A stretch of DNA of 64,000 nucleotides from Patescibacteria group bacterium (GCA_041649955.1 JBAZMD010000003.1:877-64876), one strand, 5' to 3'; positions 1,442-64,000 are shown, counted from the first letter of the stretch. Notes: generated by a model from the letters alone, not told the origin. A program made the numbers and translations.

Positions 1442-3496
1442 ATGAATATAACTGAATTAGCCAGAGTTTTAAAAGTTACACCGCAAGAGCTTAAGGAAAA
1501 ATTACCCGAGCTCGGTTTTCATATTGGTTTAAGAGCGATTCAAATTCCGGACGATCAGGCTAATAAAGTAATAGAATCTTGGCACGAAGCGGAAAAAAAA
1601 TCTGCTTTGCTTCAAAAAATTAAAGATAAAATGTCGCGCGTGGCAGATGAAGAAGAAATTGTTAAAATTAATTCTATTTCTATCCCGCCGACAATTCAGG
1701 TTTATCGCTTGGCTGAGAGATTAAAAATGCCCATTACTAAATTAATGGGAGAGCTGATTAAAAATGGAGTTTTAGCCAGTATTAATGAAAATTTAGATTT
1801 TGAAGTTGCGGCGATTGTTGCCGAAAAATTGGGATTTAAAGCGACCAGGGGCGAGGAAGGAGAAGAAATAAAGAAGAAAAAAATGATTAAAGAAAGATTG
1901 GAAGAAGTTTTGGCGCAAGAAGACAAAAATGATTTGATTATGCGTCCGCCAGTGGTAGTGGTAATGGGTCATGTTGATCACGGCAAGACCACTATTTTGG
2001 ACGCTATTCGCCAAACTCATGTTGCTGACAAAGAAGTGGGCGGCATTACTCAAAAAATCGGCGCCTATCAGGTGATTGTTCCTATAAAAGAAAAAGAACA
2101 ATCATCCCGAGCGAAGCGAGGGATAGATAGCACATCAAGCCGCACAATTACTTTTATAGACACGCCGGGCCATGAAACATTTCAAGCCATGCGATCAAGA
2201 GGCGGAGAAGCGGCTGATATTGCCGTTTTAGTGGTGGCGGCTGATGATAAAATTCAGCCTCAAACCATTGAATCAATAAAAATTATTCAGCAAGAAAATT
2301 TGCCGTTTATAGTGGCGATTAATAAAATAGATAAACCTGAAGCAGATGTTGAAAGAGTCAAAAAAGGTTTGTCGGAAATTAATTTAATACCCGAAGATTG
2401 GGGCGGTTCGGTTATTTGCGTGCCGGTTTCAGGCAAAACAAAACAAGGAATTGATGAATTATTGGAAATGATAATTCTTTTGGCAGATATGAAAAAAGAT
2501 AAATTAATGGCCAATCCTAAAGGAACATTGGTCGGAACGATTATTGAAACTCATCGCGACCCGGGCGCGGGTGAAGTGGCAAGTTTGATTATTTTTAACG
2601 GACTTTTGGAAAAAGGCACTAATCTTATTGCCGGGCATGGTTATGGAAGGGTTAAATTAATTAAGAATCGGGCTAATAAAGAAGTAGAAAAAGCGCCAAG
2701 CGGCATGCCGGTTCAAATTTTCGGTCTTAAAGGAGTGGTGAAGGTCGGAGATATTGTTGAAGAAGTGAAAGATAATAAAGAATTTAAAAAGAAAATTAAA
2801 GAAATTGATTTATCTTATCAAAAAAGAGGAGACAATAATCAAACACAAGGAGTAAAAGATAAAAAAACGACCAGAAAATCTCTTAATCTTATTTTAAGAG
2901 CTGATGTTTCCGGATCGCTTGAAGCTGTTATTCATGCTTTGGAAAAAATAAATCATCCGGAAGTAAAAATTAATATTTTAAAAAAAGATTTGGGCAATCT
3001 GACTGAAATTGACGTGGAATTAGCCAAAAATGCCAATGCTTGGCTGATTGGTTTTAACGTTGATATGACCAATCAAGCGAAACAAGCAGCCTCGGACATG
3101 GGAATCAAGATAAATATTTATCAAATTATTTACGATTTATTACAGAATGTCAAAGATGAAATGAATAAATCTTTTTCCATAGAAATTATAGAAGAAAAGA
3201 CCGGTAAATTGGAAGTTTTGGCGATTTTCAGAACTGCCGGCAAGGAAACAATTTTAGGTGGCCGGGTTGTAACCGGTAAAATATTTAAAGATAATATCGC
3301 CAGAGTTTGGGGAATAAATCAAGAATTAAAAGGCGAGGGAAAAATCGTTGAGCTTCAAGTTCATCATCAAGACGCGGCAGAAGCCAAACTTGGCACGGAA
3401 TGCGGATTGAAACTCGTCGGTTCGGCGGAAATTGTGGTGGGAGATTTTTTGGAAACTTATCGCGAAATTAAAAAAGAAAAGAAATTTATAGTTTAA
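1442..3496 (+). CDS. infB: Translation initiation factor IF-2
   Basis: G-domain motifs 'GHVDHGKTT', 'DTPGH', 'NKIDK'; typical IF-2 C-terminal domains; ~18-aa insertion between 'GAYQV' and 'ITFIDTPGH' relative to E. coli IF-2. Confidence 0.9.
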   Translation: MNITELARVLKVTPQELKEKLPELGFHIGLRAIQIPDDQANKVIESWHEAEKKSALLQKIKDKMSRVADEEEIVKINSISIPPTIQVYRLAERLKMPITKLMGELIKNGVLASINENLDFEVAAIVAEKLGFKATRGEEGEEIKKKKMIKERLEEVLAQEDKNDLIMRPPVVVVMGHVDHGKTTILDAIRQTHVADKEVGGITQKIGAYQVIVPIKEKEQSSRAKRGIDSTSSRTITFIDTPGHETFQAMRSRGGEAADIAVLVVAADDKIQPQTIESIKIIQQENLPFIVAINKIDKPEADVERVKKGLSEINLIPEDWGGSVICVPVSGKTKQGIDELLEMIILLADMKKDKLMANPKGTLVGTIIETHRDPGAGEVASLIIFNGLLEKGTNLIAGHGYGRVKLIKNRANKEVEKAPSGMPVQIFGLKGVVKVGDIVEEVKDNKEFKKKIKEIDLSYQKRGDNNQTQGVKDKKTTRKSLNLILRADVSGSLEAVIHALEKINHPEVKINILKKDLGNLTEIDVELAKNANAWLIGFNVDMTNQAKQAASDMGIKINIYQIIYDLLQNVKDEMNKSFSIEIIEEKTGKLEVLAIFRTAGKETILGGRVVTGKIFKDNIARVWGINQELKGEGKIVELQVHHQDAAEAKLGTECGLKLVGSAEIVVGDFLETYREIKKEKKFIV

Positions 3497-5946: not shown

Positions 5947-7206
5947 ATGTCTAAATTCATTATTCAAGGCGGAAAACATTTAAAAGGCGAAGTGGAAATA
6001 AAAGGCATGAAAAATGCGATTACTCCCATTATCGCGGCTACTCTTTTAACCGACGAAACTTGCGTTATTGATAATGTTCCAAAAATTTCCGATGTTGATA
6101 AAATGATTGATATTTTAAAAAGCTTGAGCAGTGAAATATCTTGGACCGGCGATCAGCAATTGACGATTTGCAATAAAAATATTTCTTTAAAAAGTTTGGA
6201 TGAGAAAGCGGTTAAAAGTTTGCGTTCTTCAATTTTATTTCTCGGTCCGTTATTAGCCAGATTTGGTAAGGTTGATTTACCGGAACCGGGCGGTTGCATT
6301 ATTGGCAAGCGGCCGATTGATGTTCATTTATCCGCTTTGAAAAGTTTAGGCGCTCAGATTATTGAAGATAATGGTTTTTATCATCTCAAAGCCGACAAGT
6401 TAATTGGCAGTAAGATTATTCTACCAGAATTTTCCGTTACCGCAACAGAGAATATCTTAATGGCTGCGGTCAAAGCTCAGGGCCAAACGATTATTAAATT
6501 GGCTGCCGAAGAACCTCATGTCCAGGATCTATGCAATTTTCTGAATAAAATGGGAGCGAAAATTTCCGGCATTGGCACTCATACTTTAATCATTGACGGA
6601 GTTGATAAGTTAAAAGGCACTCAATATAAAATTATTCCCGATCAAATAGAAATCGGCACTTTTATAGTTCTGGCCGCGGTCACTCATTCAGAGTTGCATA
6701 TTAAAAATATTGTTCCCGAACACTTGGATTTGATTCTTTTAAAATTAAAAGAAATCGGCGTTAAATTTGAATTAAAAGAAAATCAGTTGGATATTTATCC
6801 TTCATATAATTTAAAAGCTTTTAAATTGCAGGCTTTGCCTTATCCGGGTTTCCCCACTGATTTGCAGGCTCCATTCGCGCTTTTGGCAACTCAATGCAAT
6901 GGCGTCAGTTTGATCCAAGATCCGCTTTATGAAAGCCGGATGAGTTATGTCGGAGAATTGATTAAAATGGGAGCTAACGCGATTGTCGCTGATCCGCATC
7001 GCATAATTATCAGCGGTCCAACGCCTTTATACGGCCAAGAAATAAAAAGTTTTGATTTGCGCGCCGGAGCCACTTTGATTATTGCTGGTCTTTTAGCCGA
7101 AGGACAAACCGTTATTAACCAAGTTGAAATTGTTGACCGTGGTTATGAAAAAATTGAAAAAAGATTATCCCATCTCGGAGCTGAAATCAAGCGGGCGGAA
7201 AATTAA
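5947..7206 (+). CDS. murA: UDP-N-acetylglucosamine 1-carboxyvinyltransferase
   Basis: 'IQGGKHLKGEVEIKGMKNA', catalytic Cys context 'PGGCIIGKRPIDVH', full length ~419 aa. Confidence 0.9.
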   Translation: MSKFIIQGGKHLKGEVEIKGMKNAITPIIAATLLTDETCVIDNVPKISDVDKMIDILKSLSSEISWTGDQQLTICNKNISLKSLDEKAVKSLRSSILFLGPLLARFGKVDLPEPGGCIIGKRPIDVHLSALKSLGAQIIEDNGFYHLKADKLIGSKIILPEFSVTATENILMAAVKAQGQTIIKLAAEEPHVQDLCNFLNKMGAKISGIGTHTLIIDGVDKLKGTQYKIIPDQIEIGTFIVLAAVTHSELHIKNIVPEHLDLILLKLKEIGVKFELKENQLDIYPSYNLKAFKLQALPYPGFPTDLQAPFALLATQCNGVSLIQDPLYESRMSYVGELIKMGANAIVADPHRIIISGPTPLYGQEIKSFDLRAGATLIIAGLLAEGQTVINQVEIVDRGYEKIEKRLSHLGAEIKRAEN

Positions 7207-10102: not shown

Positions 10103-10233
10103 TAAGAGTACGTTGACAATTTAGATATTAGAAGCCTATTAATCTAAAAACATTAGTCTATTCAAACGCAAATCAAAGCGGGTAGCTAATCTGTTTCTTA
10201 ATTATAAATTTTGGATCAAATAATCTCTTTTAA

Positions 10234-11750
<1,517 letters not shown>

Positions 11751-11949: not shown

Positions 11950-12112
11950 GGGGTTGACCCCCATACCTGAACGGCGATAAAATACTCAGTAACGTATTTT
12001 TAAATTTTTTTAAAAATAGAAATAAATTTTATAATTTAAAACAGATTAATCAAATAAAATGAACAATTTCTCGCATTTTAAAAATATATCGCCGTTTGGT
12101 GCGGGGGTTGAC
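11950..12112. repeat. MITE-like inverted-repeat element, family A (termini GGGGTTGACCCCCATACCTGAACGGCGAT / ATCGCCGTTTGGTGCGGGGGTTGAC, AT-rich core)
   Basis: Perfect/near-perfect 25-bp terminal inverted repeats in 16S-tRNA-Ile spacer. Confidence 0.6.
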
Positions 12113-12149
12113 TAATAATATAATTTTGTTAATATTAAAATGATTTTTT

Positions 12150-12224
12150 GCGCGAGTAGTTCAATGGTAGAACGCGTCTCTGATAAAGACGAGGTTGAAG
12201 GTTCGATTCCTTCCTCGCGCACCA
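12150..12224 (+). tRNA. tRNA-Ile (anticodon GAT), CCA encoded
   Basis: Cloverleaf: acceptor gcgcgag/ctcgcgc, anticodon loop ctGATaa, T-arm ggttcgattcc. Confidence 0.85.
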
Positions 12225-12298: not shown

Positions 12299-13408
12299 AT
12301 GTCAAGAAAAAAGATGACGTATGCGGGGACAGGCGTTGATTATAATGCCATGGATCCATTCAAGCGACAGGCGCAACTTTCTGCGCGAAAGACTGCCGGA
12401 AATATCAAACGACTCGGTTTTTTAGAAGTTGAGATGAGTCGCGGCGAAAGTGTTTATCTTGTTGAAACACCAAATAGTTTTCTCGCTCAAGTTGAAGAAG
12501 GGCTTGGTACAAAAAATCTTGTCGCTGATGAGATGTATCGTCTTACCGGTAAGTCATATTACGATCAAATTGCGCAGTGTACTATGGCAATGATCGTGAA
12601 TGATATGATTACGCTTGGCGCATTACCATACTCAGCGGCAATGCATCTTGCTGTCGGTACTTCCAACTGGTTTAATGATAAAAAACGGTGTTATGATCTT
12701 ATTGAGGGTTGGAAGAAGGCGTGCAATCTCGCACGCTGTGCATGGGGCGGAGGCGAAACGCCAACCTTGAAAGGTATTATCATACCAAGCACAGTCTTAC
12801 TCTCTGGTTCGGCAAGCGGTATTATAAAGCCAAAAAAGCGGCTTATTAATAACGTGAACATTCAGAATGGCGATGCGATTATCTTTGTCGAAAGTTCAGG
12901 TATTCATGCAAACGGTCTTACAATGGCTCGAGAGATTGCCGACAAGTTGCCGGACGGCTACATGACAAATCTTATTGATGGACGAACCTATGGCGAAACA
13001 CTGCTCGACCCCACTCACATTTACGTCTCACTTGTTGAAGACTGTCTTAATCGCGGTGTTAATATCCATTATGCGGTGAATATCACGGGACATGGCTGGC
13101 GCAAATTGATGCGTGCGCCCAAACCATTTGCCTACATTGTTGAATATTTGCCGAAGCAACTTCCAATCTTTGATTTTTTGCAAAAGCATGGTCCTGTGGA
13201 TGACAAGGAAGCATATGGTAATTTCAACATGGGTGCGGGATTTGCGCTATATGTGCCGGAGACAGACATAACAAAAATTCAAGAAGTGGCTAAAAATCTT
13301 GGATTTAATGTATTGTACGCCGGACATATTGAACGAAACAAAATGAAGAAAGTCGTTATTAAACCAAAGGGTCTTGAATATGCTGGAACAACACTCGGTG
13401 TTCGTTGA
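12299..13408 (+). CDS. PurM-like (AIR synthase-related) protein; GC content clearly higher than neighbours
   Basis: Motif correspondence with PurM: 'GVDYNA', 'GLGTKNL', 'MIVNDMITLGALPY', 'GGGETPTL', 'SSGIHANG', 'NITGHGW', 'FNMGAGF'; strong RBS aaaggggg; hairpin terminator at ~13415-13455. Confidence 0.7.
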   Translation: MSRKKMTYAGTGVDYNAMDPFKRQAQLSARKTAGNIKRLGFLEVEMSRGESVYLVETPNSFLAQVEEGLGTKNLVADEMYRLTGKSYYDQIAQCTMAMIVNDMITLGALPYSAAMHLAVGTSNWFNDKKRCYDLIEGWKKACNLARCAWGGGETPTLKGIIIPSTVLLSGSASGIIKPKKRLINNVNIQNGDAIIFVESSGIHANGLTMAREIADKLPDGYMTNLIDGRTYGETLLDPTHIYVSLVEDCLNRGVNIHYAVNITGHGWRKLMRAPKPFAYIVEYLPKQLPIFDFLQKHGPVDDKEAYGNFNMGAGFALYVPETDITKIQEVAKNLGFNVLYAGHIERNKMKKVVIKPKGLEYAGTTLGVR

Positions 13409-13650
13409 CAGATAATAATCTCCAAAGGGGGTTCGCAATCAATATAGCGAGCCCCTTCTTATTTTCATAAAAGTATTGAAAAATTTTATGAAATGAGTTA
13501 TAATTAATTCATAAAATAAAATAGCTTGATTTTATTTAAAATTTTTGGTAGAATAAGTTCAAATAAAGTTGAAATAATTACACTATTTTTTTGGGCACTT
13601 GGCGCAGTAAGAGTCTGTTAATAACTATATTTGCAGATTAGTATCACAGA

Positions 13651-14364
13651 GTGTATAATATATACATGAAATCAAAGTGGTACGAATTAAAAAATAATGC
13701 TGTTAAATTACGCCAACAAGGGATTTCTATAGGTAAAATTGAACATCGCCTAAAAATACCTCGTTCAACTCTCAGCGGTTGGTTTAAGAATATTCAATTA
13801 ACGCCGAAACAGAAGAAAAAATTATTGGCAAATCAAAAAAATGCTTTAGTTAAAGCGCGTAAAAAAGCGGTTTTTTGGCATAACGAGCAGAAAAAAATAA
13901 GACTTCAAGAAGCAGAAAACGAGGCTATTAAAACATTAAAGAATATTGATATTAATAATCAAAATATTCTTGAAGTGGCGATAGCTTTTCTCTATCTGGG
14001 CGAGGGATCAAAAAATAATTTAGAAACTGCTCTTGGCAGTTCAAATCCATTAATTTTAAAATTTTTCGTGGCAGCAATCAGAAAGGTTTATAAATTAGAT
14101 ATCAATAAAATAAGATGTGAATTGAGTTTAAGGGCAGATCAAGATCCCGAAGAAATGAAGAAATTTTGGGCTAAAACTCTTAAATTGCCCATTTGTAATT
14201 TTAAACAAATAAATATAGACCGAAGAACAAAGGGATCTAAAACGTACCCTTATTACAAGGGTGTATGCCATTTAAGATGCAGTAATGCAGCCATTCAAAG
14301 AAAATTGATATATCTGGGAAATTTATTTTGTCATAAAGTAATAGATAAAAATTTGGGTTCATAG
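13651..14364 (+). CDS. LAGLIDADG-family homing endonuclease (single-motif) with N-terminal HTH-like region
   Basis: 'ILEVAIAFLYLGEGSKNN' fits LAGLIDADG motif; N-terminal 'GISIGKIEHRLKIPRSTLSGWFKN' HTH-like. Confidence 0.55.
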   Translation: MYNIYMKSKWYELKNNAVKLRQQGISIGKIEHRLKIPRSTLSGWFKNIQLTPKQKKKLLANQKNALVKARKKAVFWHNEQKKIRLQEAENEAIKTLKNIDINNQNILEVAIAFLYLGEGSKNNLETALGSSNPLILKFFVAAIRKVYKLDINKIRCELSLRADQDPEEMKKFWAKTLKLPICNFKQINIDRRTKGSKTYPYYKGVCHLRCSNAAIQRKLIYLGNLFCHKVIDKNLGS

Positions 14365-14381
14365 TTCAGCTGTCGTTTTAA

Positions 14382-14456
14382 GCGCGATTGGCTCAGTGGT
14401 AGAGCGCGTCGTTGACATCGACGAGGTCGCAGGTTCGATCCCTGCATCGCGCACCA
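14382..14456 (+). tRNA. tRNA-Val (anticodon GAC), CCA encoded
   Basis: Acceptor gcgcgat/atcgcgc, anticodon loop ttGACat, T-arm ggttcgatcc. Confidence 0.85.
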
Positions 14457-14460
14457 TAAA

Positions 14461-15129
14461 ATGAGGGATAAAATCAGAGATTTGTCTCTTATTTTATTTC
14501 TTGACAAAATAGTTATTTATTATATTATTAAAATAAATCAAAGAGCCGAAAGCTTTTTTGAAAAAGGAGGAGAAATGATCAAAGAAAAAAGAATAAATAG
14601 TTTTGTTGAAAAATTATTCAGCAGTAAAGACTATTGGCGTTTCCCTATCGGGGAAGCAAATCTTCTTAAAACCAAAGAAGTAGAAGGTTGGAATAAGAGA
14701 TTTAAAAAGAACAGCCGTAAAAATTTTGGCATTGATTTGAGAACGCCACTTAAATGCAAAGAATCCAACTGTTATTTAACTCAAAAACAAAGGTGCAAAG
14801 ACTGTCAAAAAACAGAAAAACAAAGAGTAGAACTTAATATTTCACTAAAACATTTCCCGGCGGTTTTCGATAGAATTTTCTTTGCGGAAAAAGCATTTGA
14901 TAAGGTTGCTCAACAATTCGGGTTAAGTTTGTCACAGACCAACATGGGAGATTGGAGATTATGGGAAAAAAATGAAAAAGGAAGTTTTTCTGTTGCCGAG
15001 TTGGAAGCATATGGTTTTCGCATAAGCGGAAGATTCAACGGCAAAATGAAGTTTCGAGACGCCAAGGGATTATTTATAGAGTTATTGAAAATTTATTTAG
15101 ATGCCCATAAAGACTGTTGCCAATGGTAA
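14461..15129 (+). CDS. Hypothetical protein (true start probably Met at ~14575, 'MIKEKRINSF')
   Basis: ORF only; Cys-rich segment 'CKESNCYLTQKQRCKDCQK'; followed by strong terminator. Confidence 0.4.
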   Translation: MRDKIRDLSLILFLDKIVIYYIIKINQRAESFFEKGGEMIKEKRINSFVEKLFSSKDYWRFPIGEANLLKTKEVEGWNKRFKKNSRKNFGIDLRTPLKCKESNCYLTQKQRCKDCQKTEKQRVELNISLKHFPAVFDRIFFAEKAFDKVAQQFGLSLSQTNMGDWRLWEKNEKGSFSVAELEAYGFRISGRFNGKMKFRDAKGLFIELLKIYLDAHKDCCQW

Positions 15130-17596: not shown

Positions 17597-18151
17597 ATGG
17601 GTAAATTAATTATCATTTCCGGGCCCTCCGGGGCAGGTAAGGACAGCATAATTGAAGGTCTTAAAAAAGAGAATCTTGATTTTTTTGAAGTAGTAACCAC
17701 CACTACGCGTCCAATGAGGCAGGGCGAATCAGAAGGCCATCCTTATCATTTTGTTTCAAAAGAAAAATTTGAACAAATGATAAAAAATGATGAGTTGGTT
17801 GAACATGCTTTGGTTTACGAAAATTATTACGGTTCTCAGAAAAAAGATGTTGAAGAATTATTGAAGTCGGGCAAAACGGTTATTTTTAAAATTGATTGCC
17901 AAGGTGCAAAGACAATTAAAACCAAACTTCCTCAAGCAAAAGTAATTTTTATCATTTCGCCGTCAATTGAAATTTTGGAAAAACGATTGCGCGACAGAAA
18001 ACAAGATTCGGAAGAAGTGATTCAAAGGCGGGTAGCCGAAGCGCAAAAAGAATTAGCCACTCTTGATAATTGGGATTATGTTATTACTAATAAAGAAGGG
18101 GAATTAGAAGAAGCCGTGAAACGAGTTAAAGAAATTATTATTTCGCTTTAA
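17597..18151 (+). CDS. gmk: Guanylate kinase
   Basis: P-loop 'GPSGAGKDS', 'TTRPMRQGE..G..YHFV'. Confidence 0.9.
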   Translation: MGKLIIISGPSGAGKDSIIEGLKKENLDFFEVVTTTTRPMRQGESEGHPYHFVSKEKFEQMIKNDELVEHALVYENYYGSQKKDVEELLKSGKTVIFKIDCQGAKTIKTKLPQAKVIFIISPSIEILEKRLRDRKQDSEEVIQRRVAEAQKELATLDNWDYVITNKEGELEEAVKRVKEIIISL

Positions 18152-18539: not shown

Positions 18540-18626
18540 GCGGACGTGGCGGAACTGGTATACGCGCATGCTTGAGGTGCATGTGGGAGCAATCCTGCGA
18601 GGGTTCGAATCCCTCCGTCCGCACCA
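18540..18626 (+). tRNA. tRNA-Leu (anticodon GAG), long variable arm, CCA encoded
   Basis: Acceptor gcggacg/cgtccgc, anticodon loop ttGAGgt, variable arm tgggagcaatcctgcga, T-arm gggttcgaatccc. Confidence 0.85.
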
Positions 18627-18653
18627 AAAACTAAAATATAGAAATTATAATAT

Positions 18654-18727
18654 GGGCCCGTGGTATACCGGTAACACGCTTCCATGGCATGGAAGAGTAA
18701 GGGGTTCGATTCCCCTCGGGTCCACCA
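18654..18727 (+). tRNA. tRNA-Ala (anticodon GGC) with G3:U70, CCA encoded
   Basis: Acceptor gggcccg/cgggtcc (G3-U70), anticodon loop atGGCat, T-arm ggggttcgattcccc. Confidence 0.85.
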
Positions 18728-18757
18728 AAATTTAACAGGGGCGTCGGGTTTTATCAG

Positions 18758-18829
18758 GGGCAATTAGCTCAATGGTAGAGCGTCTCGTTTACACCGAGAA
18801 GGTTGTAGGTTCGATCCCTACATTGCCCA
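18758..18829 (+). tRNA. tRNA-Val (anticodon TAC), no encoded CCA
   Basis: Acceptor gggcaat/attgccc, anticodon loop ttTACac, T-arm ggttcgatccc. Confidence 0.85.
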
Positions 18830-18878
18830 TTTAAGAGGGCAAATAAGGGCGAAATACACTCTTAAACATACAAATTTC

Positions 18879-18950
18879 GCCAGGGTAGCTCAGTGGTAGA
18901 GCGAAGGACTGAAAATCCTTGCGTTGGCAGTCCGATTCTGCCCCCTGGCA
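18879..18950 (+). tRNA. tRNA-Phe (anticodon GAA), no encoded CCA
   Basis: Acceptor gccaggg/ccctggc, anticodon loop ctGAAaa, T-arm ggcagtccgattctgcc. Confidence 0.85.
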
Positions 18951-21233: not shown

Positions 21234-21962
21234 ATGCCAGAAAAAAATAGAGGATTTAATCCTGACACTTCACAAAATAAAGGAATAAAATCTCAAAATA
21301 TAGAGCTCTACGATAAAGAAGGAAGAGTGCAAGACCCTGAAATTGCGCAGGTAATGGCTAAGATTGAGAAACCTTATCGAGAGCAGAAACGATGGGGAGT
21401 ATTTGGTCCGTCTAAGAAAACAATAGAAAAAGGAGAACAGCTTGCTGAAGAGAGAGGAGAGGAATCTTTAGAAGGGCGGAAAGATCATTTACGAAGGGAA
21501 ATAATAGATACTATAAACTATCTATTGCATAAAAAGGGAACAGAACGCAGTATTAGTTATACAGCAAAAGGAGTACACCAATTTGGAGGTCCATGGAGCA
21601 AGATGGTACAAAATACAGAGCATAAGTTGGATTTAGATATAGCAGACGGAATATCAATAAATTACACTCTAATTGGCGGTGGTTTTGCACCAGACGGCCT
21701 TTTAATGAATGGACATAGTTTAGATATTGACAGGCTTAGTTATGATGAAAGAAAAACACTATTAAAGGCATTAAAGGAAACGGCAGAGCCATACAAAGTT
21801 TCCGATAGAGAGAGAAGTTTAAAAAAGGAAAATTCAAGGATTCTGTCAGACGAGAAAGTAAAAGGAAAACAGGAATCAGAACATAAGATCGCAGCAGAAG
21901 GAGAATCCAAGGTTGCAGAGTTGTTAAAAGAATTAGCAAAAAAATATAAAGAGAAAAATTAG
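21234..21962 (+). CDS. Hypothetical protein
   Basis: ORF only; hydrophilic, Lys/Glu-rich C-terminus; unrelated in sequence to 20018-20833 product. Confidence 0.45.
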   Translation: MPEKNRGFNPDTSQNKGIKSQNIELYDKEGRVQDPEIAQVMAKIEKPYREQKRWGVFGPSKKTIEKGEQLAEERGEESLEGRKDHLRREIIDTINYLLHKKGTERSISYTAKGVHQFGGPWSKMVQNTEHKLDLDIADGISINYTLIGGGFAPDGLLMNGHSLDIDRLSYDERKTLLKALKETAEPYKVSDRERSLKKENSRILSDEKVKGKQESEHKIAAEGESKVAELLKELAKKYKEKN

Positions 21963-28226: not shown

Positions 28227-28949
28227 ATGAAAATACTTAAAGATGCCGGAAGTTTTGTAATTTTAACGCCTGAAGAAAATTTGAAATCGCAATTATTAAC
28301 CATTGAAAGAGCAGGGAGAACTTGTTATCAATCAGTTGCTCAAGAAATTACTCAAGAAACAGCGGAAAAATTCGTTAAAATGATTTTAAAACTCGGGCAT
28401 GAAAGCGTGATGGAGCACAGTTTGATGATTGTTCAATTTAATGATTGTTCCCGCGGTTTGACTCACGAATTGGTTCGCCATCGCATAATGGGTATTTCTC
28501 AAGAATCAACTCGTTATGTGGATTATGCCAAACCGGGAGCGGAAGTGGATTTGGAAAAATTTGAATTAAAATGCGTTGTCCCGGCTCATAAAGATGAAAA
28601 TGAAAAAGTGAAATTAGCTGACGGACGGGAAATGTCCATGGCCGAAATGCTTCAAGAAACGGAAAATTTTTATCGAGGCTTGAGAAAAGCGGGTTGGCTG
28701 CCGCAAGATGCCAGACAAATTTTGCCTACGGCGATTAAATCGCAAATTGTTGTTTCGGCGAATTTTCGCGAGTGGCGGCATATTTTTAAAATGCGAACTG
28801 CCAGGCCGGCTCATTGGGAAATCAGAGAGGTATTAGGGAAATTATTGGAAAAATTAAAAACGATTATTCCGGTTGTTTTTGAAGATTTTGTGGAAGCGGG
28901 TAAAGACGAAAATGGATTAAAATATTTTGAAAAAATCTCTCGCTCATAA
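28227..28949 (+). CDS. thyX: Flavin-dependent thymidylate synthase
   Basis: ThyX signature 'HELVRHRIMGISQESTRYV' (RHRx7S). Confidence 0.85.
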   Translation: MKILKDAGSFVILTPEENLKSQLLTIERAGRTCYQSVAQEITQETAEKFVKMILKLGHESVMEHSLMIVQFNDCSRGLTHELVRHRIMGISQESTRYVDYAKPGAEVDLEKFELKCVVPAHKDENEKVKLADGREMSMAEMLQETENFYRGLRKAGWLPQDARQILPTAIKSQIVVSANFREWRHIFKMRTARPAHWEIREVLGKLLEKLKTIIPVVFEDFVEAGKDENGLKYFEKISRS

Positions 28950-30948: not shown

Positions 30949-31326
30949 TGGTGGAGATGGCGGGTACTTCCCCCGCGTCCGGGAAAATTATAGATAAAAA
31001 CGTTTACCTTCATTTTTCAGTTATTTTCTTGATTAAAAAGTGATAACTGAACAAAACCTTTTTAATCAGAGCTTGATTTTGGTTTTCGGAAAATCCAGAC
31101 AAGCAACTGGATTAACTTATCCGATAATATAATACGTCATGATTCGAGCATCGGCACTGTAAATCCTAACGGCTACAGCGTTAAGCTATAGCAAAGTTTA
31201 AATTTGTGTTGGCATTTATATCTGCCGTAGAAAATTAACGTATTTCTGATTTATTTCCTATTAAAAAATAGGAATGTACGGAAGGTAATTTTTATCCAAA
31301 TCAACCGTCAATTTTTGAGCATCCCC
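30949..31326 (-). ncRNA. ssrA: tmRNA (SsrA), one-piece, ~378 nt, tag peptide ANTNLNFAIA
   Basis: Minus-strand 5' GGGGAUG pairs with 3' CAUCUCC (G3:U wobble) + ACCA; 3' end 'ggacgcgggggaagtacccgccatctccacca' aligns with E. coli 'GGACGCGGGUUCAACUCCCGCCAGCUCCACCA'; internal ORF gcc aac aca aat tta aac ttt gct ata gct TAA; upstream consensus TTGACA-16-TATAAT promoter (31373-31400, minus). Confidence 0.85.
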
Positions 31327-31391: not shown

Positions 31392-31548
31392 AAATGTCAA
31401 CCCCGTAGAACAACTTTGACCTCTCTTTTAATTGCGGGTAATAAATAGGCAAAATATAATAAAGTAATCTACTTTTAACTTAAAGATTAGTAAATTTAAC
31501 CGAGAGTAAGCAATTGTCAAAGTTAATCTACGGGGTCAAGGTCTTTTT
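31392..31548. repeat. Inverted-repeat element (termini GTCAACCCCGTAGAACAACTTTGAC / GTCAAAGTTAATCTACGGGGTCAAGG)
   Basis: ~26-bp terminal inverted repeats; left end overlaps tmRNA -35, right end overlaps smpB stop region. Confidence 0.5.
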
Positions 31549-31975
31549 GTTCTCGTCTTTTATAATCCCGTTCTTTAATGGCTTCGCGCTTGTCCCATTG
31601 TTTTTTTCCTCGCGCCAAGCCGCATTCTATTTTTACGAGGCCGCCTTTGGTATAAACTTTAAGGGGAATAAGCGTCACTCCTTTCACTTTCATTTTTCCG
31701 ATTAAAGTTCTGATTTCCTTTTTTTTGATCAATAATTTTCTAGTATGAGTCGGATTATAATTTTGCTGGACATTAAAAGCGGGAGGGTAAGGCGAGATAT
31801 GGACATTGATTAATTCTAATGCTCCTTGATTATTAATTGAAACATATCCGCCGGTTAAATTTATTTTTCCGTATTTTGCGGATTTAACTTCCGGCCCAGT
31901 CAAAATAATTCCGGCTTCAAAGGTCTCCAGAATTTCATAATTGAAATAGGCTTTTTTATTGGTGGCGATGATCAT
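31523..31975 (-). CDS. smpB: SsrA-binding protein
   Basis: 'KKAYFNYEILETFEAGIILTGPEVKS' canonical SmpB N-terminus. Confidence 0.9.
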   Translation of the reverse strand: MIIATNKKAYFNYEILETFEAGIILTGPEVKSAKYGKINLTGGYVSINNQGALELINVHISPYPPAFNVQQNYNPTHTRKLLIKKKEIRTLIGKMKVKGVTLIPLKVYTKGGLVKIECGLARGKKQWDKREAIKERDYKRREQKDLDPVD

Positions 31976-35894: not shown

Positions 35895-36383
35895 TTACTT
35901 ATTCTTGCCGATATTGTTATACCACAAGTTTATCTCGAGGCCCATAAAAAAAAGAGCAAAACACGCTACAAAGATAAGAATTGAATATATAATACTTATT
36001 CCTCCTTTGTCTTTGCAGAAGGTTATCAATAGGAATTTACCATCTTTCGCAGCCATGGTGTCTATTTCTTTTATTTTTTGAGTCTGTCCCATATTTGAGA
36101 GATTTTGTTCATATTGAAAACATCCATTCTGATTAAAGCCCTGGTAAATAATTGATTCAACGCCATGACCTATTAGGACAGAATCAAATCCAACCTTAAA
36201 AAATTTGTATTTGGAATCGACTTGAAAATCTGGTTGTAAAGTTAAATTTGGTTTTACAATAAAATAATTGGAGCGAATCTCATTGAGATTAATAGTTCTA
36301 CTTCCTCCATCATTTGAAGTCCAAATTACGATGTTCCAAGCAATCCCCGCTATTATTAAAATAGCAAGCAAAATTTTCTTCAT
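35895..36383 (-). CDS. Hypothetical membrane protein (N- and C-terminal TM helices), last gene of ACP-like operon
   Basis: ORF; start overlaps upstream ACP stop (ATGA). Confidence 0.4.
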   Translation of the reverse strand: MKKILLAILIIAGIAWNIVIWTSNDGGSRTINLNEIRSNYFIVKPNLTLQPDFQVDSKYKFFKVGFDSVLIGHGVESIIYQGFNQNGCFQYEQNLSNMGQTQKIKEIDTMAAKDGKFLLITFCKDKGGISIIYSILIFVACFALFFMGLEINLWYNNIGKNK

Positions 36384-36616
36384 TTTATCCCCCTTTCTTC
36401 AAAATACCTAATCACGCTGCCTACTGTTGTAAGTTTGCCTTCTTCTTCATCTGGAATTTTTATATTGAACTTTCTTTCAAAAGCCAAGAATAATTCCAGA
36501 ATATTCAGAGAATCAGCCCCAAGGTCATCTATAAAACGAGCCGAATCCACAACTTGTTCCTTGTTGACCCTAAGTGTCTTCACAATAATTTTTATTACTT
36601 CTTTTCTTATATCCAT
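36380..36616 (-). CDS. Acyl carrier protein (canonical DSL Ser present)
   Basis: 'DDLGADSLNILEL' phosphopantetheine attachment motif; 78 aa acidic. Confidence 0.75.
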   Translation of the reverse strand: MDIRKEVIKIIVKTLRVNKEQVVDSARFIDDLGADSLNILELFLAFERKFNIKIPDEEEGKLTTVGSVIRYFEERGIK

Positions 36617-36633
36617 TATTCCTCCTATTTTTT

Positions 36634-36903
36634 TTAACTATGATATGCCTCTACTTCTTCTACGACATGTTCAGCTAAACTTTCTATAGTATAACTATCA
36701 CGTTTATCCACTTCCATTGTGAGATCCATCCCAATATCATATTTTTCTTCAAGATAACAAAATATAAAAACGCAATCTACATCATTTAATCCTAAGTCAT
36801 CTACCAGTCGTGGATTATTCAGTATTTTTTCTTTCGGAATCGGGAAATTATTGGAAATGAATTTTTTAATTTCTTCTTTGATTTCTTCTATACTTATTTC
36901 CAT
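36634..36903 (-). CDS. ACP-like protein with Ser->Asn at attachment site
   Basis: 'VDDLGLNDVDCVFI' in place of DSL; ACP-sized, acidic. Confidence 0.55.
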   Translation of the reverse strand: MEISIEEIKEEIKKFISNNFPIPKEKILNNPRLVDDLGLNDVDCVFIFCYLEEKYDIGMDLTMEVDKRDSYTIESLAEHVVEEVEAYHS

Positions 36904-37184
36904 TTTATCCCCCTTTTTTCAAGATATTTGATTACACTGCCCACTGTGGTTAGTTTCTCAGCTTCTTCTTCTGTAATTTCTATGTTGAATTTTGTTTCTA
37001 AATCAAAAATAAAATCAATCATATCCATATCATTTCCGCCAAGATCATCAATAAAACGGGATGAATCTGTAATCTCTGTTTCTTCCACTCCAAATTTATC
37101 CATAGTTAACTTTATTACTTCTTCTCTTATATTCATTATTCCTCTCCTTTTTAAGGTACTGCGTTTCGCCAAATCTATATCCAC
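36894..37184 (-). CDS. ACP-like protein paralog of 36380-36616 with Ser->Asn (true start likely internal Met 'MNIREEV' ~37135)
   Basis: 'SSRFIDDLGGNDMDMIDFIFDLETKFNIEITEEEAEKLTTVGSVIKYLEKRGIK' vs 'SARFIDDLGADSLNILELFLAFERKFNIKIPDEEEGKLTTVGSVIRYFEERGIK'. Confidence 0.55.
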   Translation of the reverse strand: MDIDLAKRSTLKRRGIMNIREEVIKLTMDKFGVEETEITDSSRFIDDLGGNDMDMIDFIFDLETKFNIEITEEEAEKLTTVGSVIKYLEKRGIKWK

Positions 37185-37220
37185 ATTTGGTTATTGTTAT
37201 TTAAGCAGATTTTTGGGTTT

Positions 37221-37387
37221 TCGTCAACCCCCACACCAAACGGCGATTTGTATTTTTTTAAATACGAAATTATTTAATTCTGTATTTAAGATTACTTATT
37301 TATTTGTCTAAAATTTATCTTATTTCGAAAATCCAAAAAATACAAAAATTGAGCATTTATCGCCATTCTGGTGTGGGGGTCAAGCCC
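37221..37387. repeat. MITE-like element family A (termini CGTCAACCCCCACACCAAACGGCGAT / ATCGCCATTCTGGTGTGGGGGTCAAGCCC)
   Basis: Near-perfect 26-bp TIRs, AT-rich ~110-bp core, between ACP-like operon and ileS. Confidence 0.6.
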
Positions 37388-37441
37388 TTGCTTTTTTATT
37401 TTTTTCTGTTAAAATTAAGTTATTAAAACTTTTTATCCAAT

Positions 37442-40384
37442 ATGGCTCAAATAAATTTTTTACAAATTGAAGAGGAAATTCTGAAATTTTGGCGGGAAAA
37501 AGAGATTTTTAATAAATCTTTGTCAAAAAAAGCCCCTCAGGGCAATTTTGTCTTTTTTGAAGGTCCGCCAACCGCCAATGGCCGTCCGCATATCGGCCAT
37601 GCTTTAACGCGTTTTTACAAAGACGCGGTTTTACGGTACAAAACAATGCAAGGATTTCACGTTGATCGCAAGGCAGGTTGGGACACTCAGGGTTTACCGG
37701 TTGAACTTGAAGTGGAAAAAGAAATTGGCATCAGCGGCAAGCCGGATATTGAAAAATTCGGCATTGATAAATTCAATCAAAAATGCCGCGAAAATGTTTG
37801 GAAATACAAAGATGAATGGGAAAAAATGACCGAAAGAATCGGTTTTTGGCTGGACTTAAAGCATCCGTATGTGACTTATGATTCGTCTTACATTGAAACC
37901 ATTTGGTGGATTTTGGCGAAAATTTGGAACAAAGGATTGCTTTATCAGGATTATAAAGTTGTGCCTTGTTGTCCGCGCTGCGGCACGGCCTTATCTTCTC
38001 ACGAAGTCGCTCAGGGTTATCAAAATATTGAAGAAACCTCGGTTTATTTAAAATTTAAAATTACAAATCAAGAAAATACTTATCTTTTGGCTTGGACAAC
38101 TACGCCTTGGACTTTGCCCGGAAATGTAGCTTTGGCGGTGAATAAGGGCGTTGATTATGTAAAAATTTCAAAAGAAGTTTTTCCGTCTGAGTCCGCGTTA
38201 AGTCCGCGTCAGTCAGTGTCTAAGGAATATTGGATTTTGGCGAAAAACAGATTAAGCGTGATTGACGGAGATTATAAAATCATTGAAGAATTCCTGGGAG
38301 AAAAATTATTAAATTTTGATTATCAACCGCTTTTTGATTTTATCAAACCCGAAAAACGGGCTTGGTTTGTTATTCATGGAGATTTTGTTTCCACAGAAGA
38401 CGGCACGGGTGTTGTCCATATTGCTCCGGCTTTTGGCGAAGAGGATATGGAAGTTGGCAAGAAAAATGATTTGCCCGTTTTGGTTACAGTGGAGCTTGAT
38501 GGAAAAATGAAAAATGAAATTAAACCTTGGGCCGGAATGTGGGTTAAAGATGCTGACCCCTTGATTATTAAAGATTTGGAAAACAGAAAAATTTTACTTA
38601 AAACGGAAAAAATTCATCATGATTATCCTTTTTGCTGGCGCTGCAAAACTCCTTTGCTCTATTACGCCAAGTTGTCTTGGTTTATAAAAGTTACTGATCC
38701 TCAGGTGAAAGAAAATTTAATTAAAAACAGCCAAACTATCAATTGGGTTCCGGCTCACATCAAAGAGGGGAGATTTGGCGAATGGCTTAAAAATATCAGA
38801 GATTGGGCGATTTCCCGCGAAAGATATTGGGGTACGCCTTTGCCGATTTGGGAATGTCAAAAATGCAAACACCGTGAATGCGTCGGTTCATTTGAAGAAT
38901 TGGCAAAAAAAACAAATAAAAATTTAGGAGAAAATTTTGATCCCCATCGGCCGCAAATTGACGGATTAACCTGGTCTTGTCCGGATTGCGGCGGAGAAAT
39001 GAAAAGAGTGTTGGAGGTTTTGGATTGCTGGTTTGACTCAGGCTCTATGCCTTTTGCACAATGGCATTATCCTTTTGAAAATGTTGAAAAAATCAACAAT
39101 GGTCAAAGCTACCCTGCTGATTTTATTTCCGAAGCAATGGACCAAACCAGGGGTTGGTTTTATTCACTTTTGGCAATTTCAACTTTAATTGACAAGGGTG
39201 CCAGTTATAAAAACGTGATTTGTCTTGATTTTGTTTTGGATGCCGCAGGCGAAAAAATGTCCAAATCAAAGGGCAATGTTGTTTTTTGGGATGCGGTGGA
39301 GCAGTACGGCGCTGATCCAATCAGATGGTTTTTATATACAGTCAATCAATCCAGCGAGAGCAAATCGTTTGATCCGGCTGAAATTAAAAAAGCCACTCAG
39401 CGGATGTTTTTGATTTTTTGGAATGTTTTTGAATTTTATAATACTTATGGCTTAAAGGTTTCCGATCCGCCCGCTGGCGGAAAGAAATCAGAAAATATTA
39501 TTGATCAGTGGATTTTGACCAAATTTTCTTTATTAATTAAAGAAGCCGGTCAGAAAATGGATAAATACGATTTAACCGGAACAACCAGGACTATTGAAGC
39601 TTTTATTACTGATTTATCGCAATGGTATTTACGGCGTTCCCGCGATCGATTTTCCGATAAATCAGAAGAAGCAAATCAAACTCTTTATTATGTTTTATTA
39701 AATTTAACGAAATTATTGGCTCCCTTTACGCCATTCTGTGCTGAAAAATTATATCTTGATTTGACTCAAGGAAAAATCAAAGAATCTGTTCATTTGGATG
39801 ATTGGCCCACAGCTGACGAAGAATTAATAAAACAAGGAGAAAAATTATTGGAAGAAATGGAAACGGTCAGAAAAATTTGCGAAATATCGCACAATCTCAG
39901 ATTAAAAGCGAAAATTAAGGTTCGCCAGCCGCTTAAAACACTTTCCATAAAAATTAAACCATTTATTAACCAAGGTTTGATTGATCTGATTAAAAACGAG
40001 GTTAATCTGAAAGAAATTAATTTTGTGGAAAATTTGCCACAAGGAGATGGTTGGCAGACAAATGAAGACTCAGAAATCAAATTATCTCTCGAAATAAATA
40101 TCACTCCGGAGCTGAAAAAAGAAGGATTAGCGCGGGAGTTAACCAGAAATATTAATTCTCTGCGAAAAGAATCAGGTTTAACGCAAAAAGATCAAGTTGA
40201 TATTTATTATCAAACTTCTTTCGTGGACCTTGAAGAAGTAATGAATGATTTTGCGGATCTTCTGAAAGAAAAAACCGCCAGCAAGAATATTTTTGAAAAA
40301 ATTCCAGAACAATCTTTAATTCAAAAAGAATTTGACATTGATGGAAATAAGATGTCTATTGCTTTGGTTTTAGCGAAAAATTAA
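37442..40384 (+). CDS. ileS: Isoleucine--tRNA ligase
   Basis: HIGH 'PTANGRPHIGHAL', KMSKS 'KMSKSKGN', editing domain, Zn Cys clusters. Confidence 0.9.
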   Translation: MAQINFLQIEEEILKFWREKEIFNKSLSKKAPQGNFVFFEGPPTANGRPHIGHALTRFYKDAVLRYKTMQGFHVDRKAGWDTQGLPVELEVEKEIGISGKPDIEKFGIDKFNQKCRENVWKYKDEWEKMTERIGFWLDLKHPYVTYDSSYIETIWWILAKIWNKGLLYQDYKVVPCCPRCGTALSSHEVAQGYQNIEETSVYLKFKITNQENTYLLAWTTTPWTLPGNVALAVNKGVDYVKISKEVFPSESALSPRQSVSKEYWILAKNRLSVIDGDYKIIEEFLGEKLLNFDYQPLFDFIKPEKRAWFVIHGDFVSTEDGTGVVHIAPAFGEEDMEVGKKNDLPVLVTVELDGKMKNEIKPWAGMWVKDADPLIIKDLENRKILLKTEKIHHDYPFCWRCKTPLLYYAKLSWFIKVTDPQVKENLIKNSQTINWVPAHIKEGRFGEWLKNIRDWAISRERYWGTPLPIWECQKCKHRECVGSFEELAKKTNKNLGENFDPHRPQIDGLTWSCPDCGGEMKRVLEVLDCWFDSGSMPFAQWHYPFENVEKINNGQSYPADFISEAMDQTRGWFYSLLAISTLIDKGASYKNVICLDFVLDAAGEKMSKSKGNVVFWDAVEQYGADPIRWFLYTVNQSSESKSFDPAEIKKATQRMFLIFWNVFEFYNTYGLKVSDPPAGGKKSENIIDQWILTKFSLLIKEAGQKMDKYDLTGTTRTIEAFITDLSQWYLRRSRDRFSDKSEEANQTLYYVLLNLTKLLAPFTPFCAEKLYLDLTQGKIKESVHLDDWPTADEELIKQGEKLLEEMETVRKICEISHNLRLKAKIKVRQPLKTLSIKIKPFINQGLIDLIKNEVNLKEINFVENLPQGDGWQTNEDSEIKLSLEINITPELKKEGLARELTRNINSLRKESGLTQKDQVDIYYQTSFVDLEEVMNDFADLLKEKTASKNIFEKIPEQSLIQKEFDIDGNKMSIALVLAKN

Positions 40385-63498: not shown

Positions 63499-64000
63499 AG
63501 TTAAGTGGTGAATTAGAAAATTAGAGTGTGTGGTGGATGCCTAGACATCAAAAGCCGATAAAGGACGTAGCAGCCTGCGATAAGCTTCGGGGAGGTGGCA
63601 AGCAACCTTTGATCCGGAGATTTCCGAATGGGGTAACCTATTTGCGCCAAAACGCAAATGGCTATGACTTTAGTTATAGCCGGGAACCTGGGGAAGTGAA
63701 ACATCTCAGTACCCAGAGGAAAATAAAGTGATAACGTATTCCCTTAGTAGTGGCGAGCGAAAAGGGAGAAGTCTAAATCTTAAGAGATCTAAGCTAGATA
63801 AGGGGTCTGTCGCAAGATGGAATCTTTTGTCCAGTAAAAGGCATTAGCGCTAAAATATCTTTTGAGAGGTTGTGAGATTGTTAATGTTTTATTCGCTATT
63901 GAATAAAGTTAGAATTTAGTTTCTTAGTCGAAAAACCTGGAAAGGTTTACCATAGAAGGTGATAGGCCTGTAGACGAAAAGATTTTAAATTCTAATAGTT
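63499..64000 (+). rRNA. rrl: 23S ribosomal RNA, 5' portion (continues beyond window)
   Basis: 'ggtggatgcctag', 'gaaggacgtag', 'gggaaccggggaactgaaacatctcagtaccc'-like 'cctggggaagtgaaacatctcagtacccagaggaaaa', 'gtagtggcgagcgaaa'. Confidence 0.85.

Follow-up and report, generated by a model that had tools for sequence, protein, structure and literature searches.

We analyzed a stretch of 64,000 nucleotides from a Patescibacteria group bacterium (GCA_041649955.1, JBAZMD010000003.1:877-64876), which is called the window below and is numbered from its first letter. The source is a metagenome-assembled genome (MAG) of the Parcubacteria type, within the Candidate Phyla Radiation (CPR), and the window is AT rich, with a GC content of 0.357. 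Our subject is positions 12299 to 14364, where two protein-coding genes lie between a tRNA-Ile gene and a tRNA-Val gene downstream of the 16S rRNA gene. The first encodes a PurM-like product of 369 amino acids (aa), which carries the public annotation "AIR synthase-related protein" (AIR, aminoimidazole ribonucleotide). The second, an open reading frame (ORF) here called ORF2, encodes a product of 232 aa, which is annotated with an ATG start at 13666 as a "hypothetical protein." The public protein collection contains identical copies of both products. The features of the locus, followed by the stable-RNA genes farther along the window, are as follows.

10228-11750, plus strand: 16S rRNA gene, full length and without insertion (Rfam SSU_rRNA_bacteria, 1454.7 bits, model positions 1-1533).
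12108-12135, plus strand: promoter-like site 5' of tRNA-Ile, TTGACT-16-TAATAT with an upstream TG (consensus scan only; putative function).
12150-12224, plus strand: tRNA-Ile(GAU) (ARAGORN, Rfam).
6 nt 5' of the PurM-family gene at 12299, plus strand: Shine-Dalgarno-like AGGGGG.
12299-13408, plus strand: PurM-family gene (formylglycinamidine ribonucleotide [FGAM] cyclo-ligase/AIR synthase type), 369 aa (Pfam, NCBIfam, and PDB matches).
13426-13466, plus strand: intrinsic-terminator-like hairpin (11 bp) and U-tract, closing the tRNA-Ile/PurM unit (folding energy).
13593-13608, plus strand: relic of a tRNA-Val 5' end, GGGCACTTGGCGCAGT (identity to the tRNA-Val(GAC) of relatives).
13616-13624, plus strand: degenerate DnaA-box-like element, TGTTAATAA, at -50 from the ORF2 ATG.
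13630-13659, plus strand: ORF2 promoter, -35 TTGCAG at 13631-13636 and -10 TATAAT at 13654-13659 (conservation, consensus scan).
13666-14364, plus strand: ORF2, 232 aa (homologs, alignments, AlphaFold2 models).
14355-14372, plus strand: second tRNA-5'-like relic, GGGTTCATAGTTCAGCTG (resemblance to the tRNA-Val 5' end of relatives).
14382-14456, plus strand: tRNA-Val(GAC), the invariant partner of ORF2 (ARAGORN, Rfam).
18540-18950, plus strand: tRNA array Leu(GAG)-Ala(GGC)-Val(UAC)-Phe(GAA) (tRNA gene scan).
63510-64000, plus strand: 23S rRNA gene, 5' part, cut by the window end (Rfam LSU_rRNA_bacteria).

A preliminary description of this DNA had located the 16S rRNA gene, tRNA-Ile, both ORFs, and tRNA-Val, and ARAGORN, Rfam, and the ORF calls place them where it did. 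It had also called the setting an rRNA operon spacer. The genes do lie between 16S/tRNA-Ile and tRNA-Val, but the term is a loose one, with the start of the 23S rRNA gene about 51.8 kb beyond the 16S end on the same strand and no tRNA-Ala(UGC) within the 64-kb window. Because the 5' end of the 23S rRNA gene first appears at 63510, the genes for 16S and 23S rRNA are unlinked here.

The two protein genes had further been presented as a pair, a view that had to be given up. Adjacency of purM and ORF2 is confined to the window: none of the 85 further ORF2 loci and none of the 17 further purM loci shows it. A conserved pair was therefore rejected, and within the window the terminator at 13426-13466 and ORF2's own promoter separate the two genes. 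In relatives (loci labeled L001 and so on below), the order tRNA-Ile(GAU)-ORF2-tRNA-Val(GAC) occurs without purM in L030, L055, L086, and L104. The most economical account is that purM, in the window lineage, became placed between tRNA-Ile(GAU) and the promoter of ORF2. Our reading of the locus, to which we give a probability of about 55%, is that two unrelated units stand side by side after an unlinked 16S rRNA gene: tRNA-Ile with an exchanged purM and a terminator, and a promoter with a leaderless core gene, ORF2, and tRNA-Val(GAC). The greater novelty lies with ORF2; PurM adds one more member to a known family, and its population history is unusual.

We examined the junction of ORF2 with its tRNA in 5 loci fetched by protein identity and in 80 metagenome loci, 77 of which were evaluable. 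tRNA-Val(GAC) is adjacent to the ORF2 gene in all 77 evaluable metagenome loci and in all 5 of the others. In 73 of the 77 it follows ORF2 immediately on the same strand, and in the remaining 4 it lies about 60 nt upstream of ORF2, a single variant arrangement that probably represents one lineage. Of 55 distinct junctions, 45 have the ORF2 stop codon inside the tRNA gene; in 26 of these, ORF and tRNA overlap by exactly 10 nt, so that U8-A9-G10 of the tRNA is the TAG stop of ORF2. C-terminal tails proved too crude as a proxy for this overlap and were dropped. The window itself is a minority case that counts against the general pattern, since its ORF2 and tRNA-Val do not overlap but are separated by a 17-nt gap. 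Here, the last codons and the TAG stop of ORF2 are provided by the relic at 14355-14372, which resembles the 5' end of tRNA-Val in L030 and L032 (GGGCTCATAGTTCA...). The tRNA order in relatives is Val(GAC)-Leu(GAG)-Val(UAC)-Phe(GAA)-Gly(GCC), and the window array at 18540-18950 is its syntenic continuation.

On its 5' side, ORF2 has a promoter that is common to 83 loci, with the consensus TTg..aatt.Gtac.actGatg.TATaaTgtATAcATG, that is, TTGnnA...TGnTATAAT-GTATAC-ATG; a consensus scan of the window also picked it up. The -10 hexamer ends 6 nt before the ORF2 ATG. This spacing implies a leaderless mRNA and moves the start from the GTG at 13651, as first proposed, to the ATG at 13666. Just upstream of the -35 hexamer, at -49/-50 from the ATG, lies the DnaA-box sequence TGTGGATAA, the reverse complement of TTATCCACA. 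Among 59 distinct upstream regions, 27 carry it within one mismatch and 13 of them without any, compared with control rates in 40-nt windows of 0.0002 (exact) and 0.0078 (one mismatch). Among relatives L029 to L108, the position of this box does not vary, and its orientation hardly ever does; a point against extending it to the window is that the window element, TGTTAATAA, carries two mismatches. The ORF2 region was also considered as a chromosomal origin (oriC) and rejected: GC skew shows no switch there, and the window holds 19 DnaA boxes versus 16.4 expected. Just upstream of the promoter lies the 16-nt relic at 13593-13608, which equals the first 16 nt of tRNA-Val(GAC) in L031, L035, L049, L068, L073, and L079. 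Similar free fragments are found in L042 (17/18), L053, and L048.

The AlphaFold2 model of ORF2 consists of a three-helix helix-turn-helix (HTH; residues 6 to 39), a long basic helix (47 to 92), and a C-terminal α/β domain (93 to 232), with a mean predicted local distance difference test score (pLDDT) of 91.2 for the full-length protein and 90.5 for the C-terminal domain (predicted template-modeling score, 0.82). At the sequence level, the N-terminal HTH is recognizable as homeodomain-like, of the transposase/invertase type. A profile of the ORF2 family matches the Sleeping Beauty PAI domain with an E value of 4e-4, and HTH_23 is found in 13 of 51 members (best E value, 5.9e-7). Weighing against this assignment, the HTH_SB and HTH_7 matches in the window ORF2 are weak (E values of 0.0035 to 0.005). 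The C-terminal domain has conserved LYxGEGxK, RADQ, and D-x-RT...YKGVC motifs, and R156, D158, Q159, D185, R187, Y197, and C201 are conserved family-wide; an enzymatic role is possible. No relatives of this domain were detectable as a Pfam model or in searches of PDB and BFVD. The family is large: a first search (E ≤ 1e-3) gave 951 clusters at 90% identity, and a search with the C-terminal domain gave 2114 at 50% identity. Nearly all full-length members have 225 to 240 aa, and almost all of the members that we examined stand directly 5' of a tRNA gene. In the searchable literature, we found no description of a tRNA-linked HTH family like ORF2, which is absence of evidence only.

From these comparisons, the Val(GAC)-linked ORF2 looks like a vertically inherited core gene because it evolves in step with FtsH: the ORF2 and FtsH identities in the same genome pairs are 64/60, 56/58, and 56/51%. 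FtsH-like evolution, a composition that follows the host, and the one fixed junction together favor a domesticated, vertically inherited DNA-binding factor. The alternative that survives best, although we consider it unlikely, is that the family consists of (still) selfish site-specific nuclease genes with a new fold. These would target the 5' part of tRNA genes and bring along a promoter and a replacement tRNA 5' end, which would keep the essential tRNA expressed, and they would be a chromosomal counterpart of the free-standing homing endonucleases of phage tRNA clusters. There is precedent in T4 SegB, a free-standing homing endonuclease in a phage tRNA gene cluster (PMC2330249). Consistent with such a view, the tRNA that is preceded differs between subfamilies, and the geometry of the junction stays the same. 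Within the same tRNA clusters, paralogs with 24 to 30% identity directly precede tRNA-Gly(GCC) (two distinct loci), tRNA-Ile(UAU) (two distinct loci), and tRNA-Trp(CCA) (one locus), and a paralog in L005 has no tRNA directly downstream. Of four distant representatives (27 to 31% identity), which were fetched independently, three have tRNA-Ala(GGC) as the gene that follows and one has tRNA-Val(GAC).

Other observations also speak for selfish behavior and so against a core function for the family. The paralogs are sporadic and leave empty tRNA sites: 4 of 12 Gly(GCC) sites and 2 of 22 Ile(UAU) sites are occupied, tRNA-Val(GAC) is empty in L013, and tRNA-Ala(GGC) is empty in the window. The promoter has relics of tRNA-Val 5' ends upstream of it in the window, L042, L053, and L048, the left flank of ORF2 is variable, and the order Ile-Val-ORF2 replaces Ile-ORF2-Val in the four variant loci, probably in a single lineage. 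The HTH is of the transposase/invertase type, and the conserved E/D/D/K/R/Y residues, including the acidic E113, D158, and D185, would together with a LAGLIDADG-like motif also fit a nuclease. Against this stands the behavior of the Val(GAC)-linked subfamily, which is conserved like FtsH with no excess similarity, follows its hosts in composition, and keeps a single junction in 77 of 77 loci. Furthermore, no known nuclease fold or family matches. What had been suggested as one possibility, a free-standing selfish gene, is thus part of a family that is indeed bound to tRNA genes, but the ORF2 of the window behaves as a vertical core gene. The paralogous and distant members lie in L065/L066 (6694-7383), L096/L097/L100, L052, L057/L058, L030 (6828-7500), and L109 to L114. 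Several members can share one tRNA cluster, and the L030 copy is frameshifted.

As a core gene, ORF2 would encode a DNA-binding factor made from the same transcript as tRNA-Val. Its mRNA would in effect be the 5' leader of tRNA-Val, and RNase P would for that reason strip the message of its 3' end and, in the majority of relatives, of its stop codon. Synthesis of the protein would thereby be coupled to transcription and processing of the tRNA operon, and the DnaA-box-like site at -50 may add a further level of control. The window also holds adjacent genes for transfer-messenger RNA (tmRNA) and SmpB on the minus strand (30949-31326 and 31523-31975), which bear on this idea because RNase P cleavage could create nonstop messages in relatives. 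Since tRNA relics flank ORF2, the module may have begun as an insertion in a tRNA gene's 5' end and been domesticated later; such an origin is plausible. More broadly, we propose, tentatively and as an idea that may well prove wrong, that the ORF2 family is a large Patescibacteria superfamily, undescribed as far as we found, that sits on the 5' side of tRNA genes (Val-GAC, Ala-GGC, Gly-GCC, Ile-UAU, and Trp-CCA) and has leaderless messages that double as the tRNA 5' leader, with the stop codon commonly in the D-arm. It would represent either a new tRNA-gene-targeting insertion module that was domesticated in the Val(GAC) lineage or a new mechanism by which a DNA-binding regulator, perhaps controlled by DnaA, is coupled to the transcription of a tRNA and its processing by RNase P.

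The assignment of the upstream gene to the PurM superfamily, also made in the preliminary description, was upheld. Its product matches Pfam AIRS (PF00586; 35.2 bits, cutoff of 24) and AIRS_C (PF02769; 37.9 bits, cutoff of 23.1) and aligns end to end with TIGR00878, purM, at 167.5 bits (residues 6 to 345 on model positions 1 to 330 of 332), far ahead of other NCBIfam families. The top solved-structure matches are PurM (E value of about 1e-30). PurM motifs read from the sequence and from the alignment with 9k05_A are VNDMITLGALP, which is of the DX4GAXP type, EEGLGTK, GGGETP, SSGIHANGLT, and FNMGAGF; DX4GAXP is a nucleotide/metal motif of the PurM superfamily. A protein search returned more than 7998 relatives, of which the top 120 are described here. 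These are 72 to 80% identical, nearly all the named ones come from Parcubacteria-type CPR, and the close relatives are all Patescibacteria. Some relatives have purine genes as neighbors: purN, purL, and purB adjoin a clade member in L002, purL and purN lie near one in the Parcubacteria MAG L018, and a Roizmanbacteria gene that is 55% identical (L022) lies within a purN-purL-purM-purB cluster. Because clade members adjoin purL, purN, or purB, the family is best read as the CPR version of PurM, and the 369-aa gene as a CPR-type PurM with predicted ATP-dependent FGAM-to-AIR cyclo-ligase activity.

Three observations weigh against that reading. The TIGR00878 score of 167.5 is below the NCBIfam equivalog cutoff of 236.35. 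A Pfam scan of every ORF of at least 120 aa found no other purine-pathway gene in the 64 kb, in agreement with the preliminary description. Finally, purine-pathway enrichment is absent among 118 pooled neighbors of 14 PurM relatives, most of which have no pur neighbors. Given the lack of pur genes in the window and beside most relatives, a noncanonical substrate is also possible.

The gene had been said to differ sharply from its neighbors in both GC content and codon usage, of which the second part stood. Its Karlin-type codon distance of 0.472 ranks second among 51 ORFs and first among the 24 ORFs of at least 300 aa, the other 23 of which are at or below 0.29. AGA usage is 6% versus 44%, TTA usage 9% versus 37%, and AAG usage 50% versus 14%. 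The GC content is only modestly raised, at 0.432 versus an ORF mean of 0.355 (standard deviation, 0.032; z = 2.4); it is the highest of any ORF, and two others reach 0.42. GC at third codon positions (GC3) is within range, at 0.386 versus 0.314 ± 0.043 (z = 1.7). The most deviant codon usage in the window (0.527) belongs to a 242-aa ORF at 21234-21962 that has no Pfam match.

In several relatives, the PurM-clade genes are coding sequence (CDS)-sized GC islands within AT-rich CPR genomes (L003/L011, L013, L023, L019, and L116). In the Nomurabacteria loci L003 and L011 (gene at 6001-7116), host GC3 is 0.23 and purM GC3 is 0.65 (z = 14 to 17). The corresponding values are 0.21 and 0.60 in L013 (8004-9113), 0.45 and 0.69 in L023, and 0.34 and 0.50 in L014, and in L116 the gene (2377-3492; GC3, 0.62) has a GC content of 0.533 versus 0.405 for the rest of the locus. 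This excess starts and stops with the purM CDS. The neighboring genes for S2, EF-Ts, S15, and HU do not share it (maximum host GC3, 0.25 to 0.29), and translational selection was rejected as its source because ribosomal-protein, EF-Ts, and HU genes lack the bias. The identities are incongruent with taxon labels as well. PurM copies from Nomurabacteria and Sungiibacteriota are 88% identical, versus 72% for two Nomurabacteria copies, and between L003 and L116 PurM is 82% identical, compared with 56% for ribosomal protein S15 and 37% for UPF0102. The loci that hold purM vary even among the closest relatives. By these sequence criteria, the CPR PurM clade appears to have been exchanged horizontally among CPR lineages. 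The foreign origin that had been thought likely therefore holds in the sense of exchange among CPR lineages, as indicated by GC3, incongruent identities, and loci, but import from outside the CPR is ruled out because all close relatives are Patescibacteria. The copy in the window looks like an older resident, largely ameliorated toward host composition. We found no specific description of this purM clade in CPR in the searchable literature.

The competing explanation, which we regard as rather improbable, is vertical descent, with GC-rich codons kept by GC-biased gene conversion or by selection, be it for expression or for a stable mRNA within a tRNA co-transcript. It would fit the exact coincidence of the GC excess with the CDS, and further findings on its side weigh against exchange. 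Fourfold sites among purM copies are strongly diverged (35 to 50% identical versus about 26% expected), yet GC3 is 0.55 to 0.69 in many hosts. L003 and L116 share neighbors around purM (UPF0102, XerC-like, S15, and NYN). No integrase flanks the gene, and no att-type direct repeats flank purM in the window, L001, L003, L016, or L023. With this much divergence at fourfold sites, and with searches for element boundaries negative, this explanation stands as a rival. It does not account for the lack of bias in highly expressed neighbors, for a PurM far more similar than S15 between the same genomes, or for loci that differ between the closest relatives, and the more distant CPR PurMs (L020 and L022, 50 to 55% identical) match their hosts in composition (z of about 0). 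A related candidate, purM as cargo of a recognizable integrative element, was rejected for want of att repeats; the nearby tyrosine recombinases look like XerC/D.

PurM-clade genes are often neighbors of tRNA genes. A tRNA lies on the same strand within 530 nt upstream of purM in seven distinct loci: tRNA-Ile(GAU) in the window, L001, and L019, Pro/Gly in L003, Tyr in L016, Pro in L023, and Arg in L116. In L001 (GCA_004196315.1, 4029-11562), an intact operon runs 16S, tRNA-Ile, purM, tRNA-Ala, 23S, and 5S. The same operon has a mechanosensitive-channel-like gene between tRNA-Ala and 23S, so that protein genes lie within the 16S-23S spacer. In the window, the hairpin and U-tract that follow purM have a folding energy of -19.7 kcal/mol (z = -4.8; 0 of 200 shuffles as stable), and no hairpin lies between tRNA-Ile and purM. 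Because a terminator follows purM and none precedes it, cotranscription with tRNA-Ile is plausible, and purM is probably read from tRNA/rRNA promoters. We suggest that the clade tends to land just downstream of tRNA genes and that, in the window lineage, purM settled between tRNA-Ile(GAU) and the ORF2 promoter, its composition then drifting mostly toward that of the host. Separately, L019 (289-447 and 600-620) has a 40-nt copy, 95% identical, of the 3' half of tRNA-Ile(GAU), 83 nt after that tRNA, as well as a partial tRNA-Ile 5' copy upstream and a T-arm-like fragment. All of these fragments are 5' of purM and may be scars of integration or excision at the tRNA. L019 is the only one of the purM loci checked for repeats that has a duplicated tRNA-Ile 3' half.

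The weakest alternative, and a very improbable one, would make ORF2 a single-motif LAGLIDADG homing endonuclease that has diverged strongly, or else a domesticated descendant of one, as WhiA is. The preliminary description had taken ORF2 for a gene like that of such an endonuclease, perhaps the relic of an rRNA or tRNA intron, and the resemblance behind this idea is confined to 12 residues (IAFLYLGEGSKN). The motif, L-A-x-L-Y-L-G-E-G-S/T-K, is conserved family-wide. It closes the opening helix of the C-terminal domain, and its acidic residue, E113, occupies the canonical position and is found in at least 90% of an alignment at 27 to 57% identity. These facts favor a LAGLIDADG origin, as does the established precedent of WhiA, a domesticated LAGLIDADG and HTH DNA-binding factor of Gram-positive bacteria. 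A LAGLIDADG protein also appears far down the BFVD list (rank 27; E value, 1.8; TM score, 0.31). Every direct comparison was negative. Pfam gave no LAGLIDADG family for ORF2 at E ≤ 10 and only weak HTH matches, and in 51 diverse family members it gave HTH families only. PDB searches with profiles of 30 close and of 51 diverse members returned HTH proteins only, and NCBIfam and PHROGs added nothing beyond HTH-type matches. An hhalign comparison with I-CreI (sequence verified) aligned 12 residues with a probability of 0.15%. Three Foldseek searches (full length against PDB and the C-terminal domain against PDB and BFVD) found nothing at E ≤ 1e-3 in either database, the best matches being OmpA-like and IspF sandwiches with TM scores of 0.41 or less. 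Finally, the modeled C-terminal topology is α-β-α-β-α-β-β-α, and because a helix splits β1 from β2, this confident model is incompatible with the αββαββα core of LAGLIDADG proteins. ORF2 as a LAGLIDADG enzyme was thus rejected, and a LAGLIDADG-like string of 12 residues is insufficient to annotate a homing endonuclease.

These results have consequences beyond the locus. Patescibacteria are usually portrayed as having no nucleotide synthesis. A highly conserved, compositionally foreign, and variably located PurM clade points to ongoing exchange of purine genes among CPR episymbionts, which a GC island of a single gene can mark. With conservation at the level of FtsH and no known domain beyond the HTH, ORF2 is a candidate for an unnamed core function of Parcubacteria-type cells. 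Its architecture prompts one to ask whether the processing of a tRNA precursor by RNase P controls the fate of an upstream message left without a stop codon. From the pattern of its paralogs, one may also ask whether tRNA-targeting insertion modules such as those of phage tRNA clusters reside in bacterial chromosomes.

Several other features of the window were recorded. Directly after tRNA-Val(GAC) lies a 222-aa ORF (14461-15129) with a near-consensus promoter, TTGACA-16-TATTAT, at 14501-14528. Because this promoter lies inside the ORF, the real start may be an internal ATG near 14575. The ORF has no Pfam, NCBIfam, or PHROG match and does not belong to the ORF2 family by hidden Markov model. 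Three DnaA boxes with one mismatch each lie within 480 nt (36704-37185) in and around a gene-poor stretch, 36383-37442, that holds one short ORF without a Pfam match. This region is the only 1-kb bin with a strongly negative GC skew (-0.255), but it is no obvious origin because the cumulative skew resumes rising afterward. The sole exact DnaA box of the window, TTATCCACA, is at 63039-63047, about 460 nt upstream of the 23S rRNA gene and at the end of a 236-aa ORF (62341-63051; GC content, 0.276) that has no family match. Two adjacent ORFs of 227 and 307 aa (42977-44583) both match the orotidine monophosphate (OMP) decarboxylase/HUMPS family, and genes for CTP synthase (60695-62314), ThyX (28227-28949), and guanylate kinase (17597-18151) are also present. 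Together these genes indicate a partial nucleotide metabolism in this genome.

The locus can be compared with several known systems. Unlinked genes for 16S and 23S rRNA are common in Patescibacteria (bioRxiv 10.1101/705046), and the window, with the two genes tens of kilobases apart, resembles them. It thus departs from the canonical rrn spacer (16S-tRNA-Ile-tRNA-Ala-23S), in which the 23S rRNA gene follows within a few kilobases. Its relative L001 differs from the unlinked pattern and has the canonical arrangement, with the operon intact and purM in the spacer between tRNA-Ile and tRNA-Ala.

With PurM (TIGR00878; PDB 1CLI, 3M84, and 9K05), the window product shares both AIRS domains, an end-to-end alignment at about 30% identity, and the DX4GAXP, GGET, SSGxHxNG, and FNMGxG motifs, and some members of its clade adjoin purL, purN, or purB. 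It differs in having NITGHG in place of HITGGG and a score under the equivalog cutoff (167.5 versus 236.35). The gene is solitary here and in most relatives, is GC richer than its hosts, often lies directly 3' of a tRNA, and is unusually conserved across CPR lineages (68 to 88%).

Among LAGLIDADG homing endonucleases, of which I-CreI is one, enzymes of rRNA insertions are documented in CPR (PMC11270868). ORF2 is like them in its 12-residue motif, in the acidic residue at a helix end, and in being a small gene beside stable-RNA genes. It is unlike them in having no family, profile, or fold match, a β-α-β-α-β-β order flanked by helices, a location outside any intron, an N-terminal HTH with a long helix, and vertical inheritance with FtsH-level conservation. 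T4 SegB-type homing endonucleases (PMC2330249) offer a closer parallel in gene arrangement, with protein genes among tRNA genes, several members per cluster, and, for the ORF2 paralogs, occupancy that varies by lineage. SegB is a GIY-YIG nuclease of a phage with demonstrated cleavage, whereas ORF2 belongs to a bacterial chromosome, is known from its sequence, and has a fold without a match. ORF2 further differs in its fixed tRNA junction, in the overlap of ORF and tRNA, and in the vertical descent of its main subfamily. The sporadic or horizontal spread of free-standing homing endonuclease genes is not seen for the Val(GAC)-linked ORF2, although it is partly so for the wider family. The last comparison is with WhiA, which has two recognizable LAGLIDADG domains, a C-terminal HTH, and no tRNA link, whereas the HTH of ORF2 is N-terminal and its fold is not recognizably LAGLIDADG. 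The likeness is conceptual: each is a widely conserved, chromosomally fixed, predicted or known DNA-binding protein that joins an HTH to a domain of possible mobile-element ancestry.

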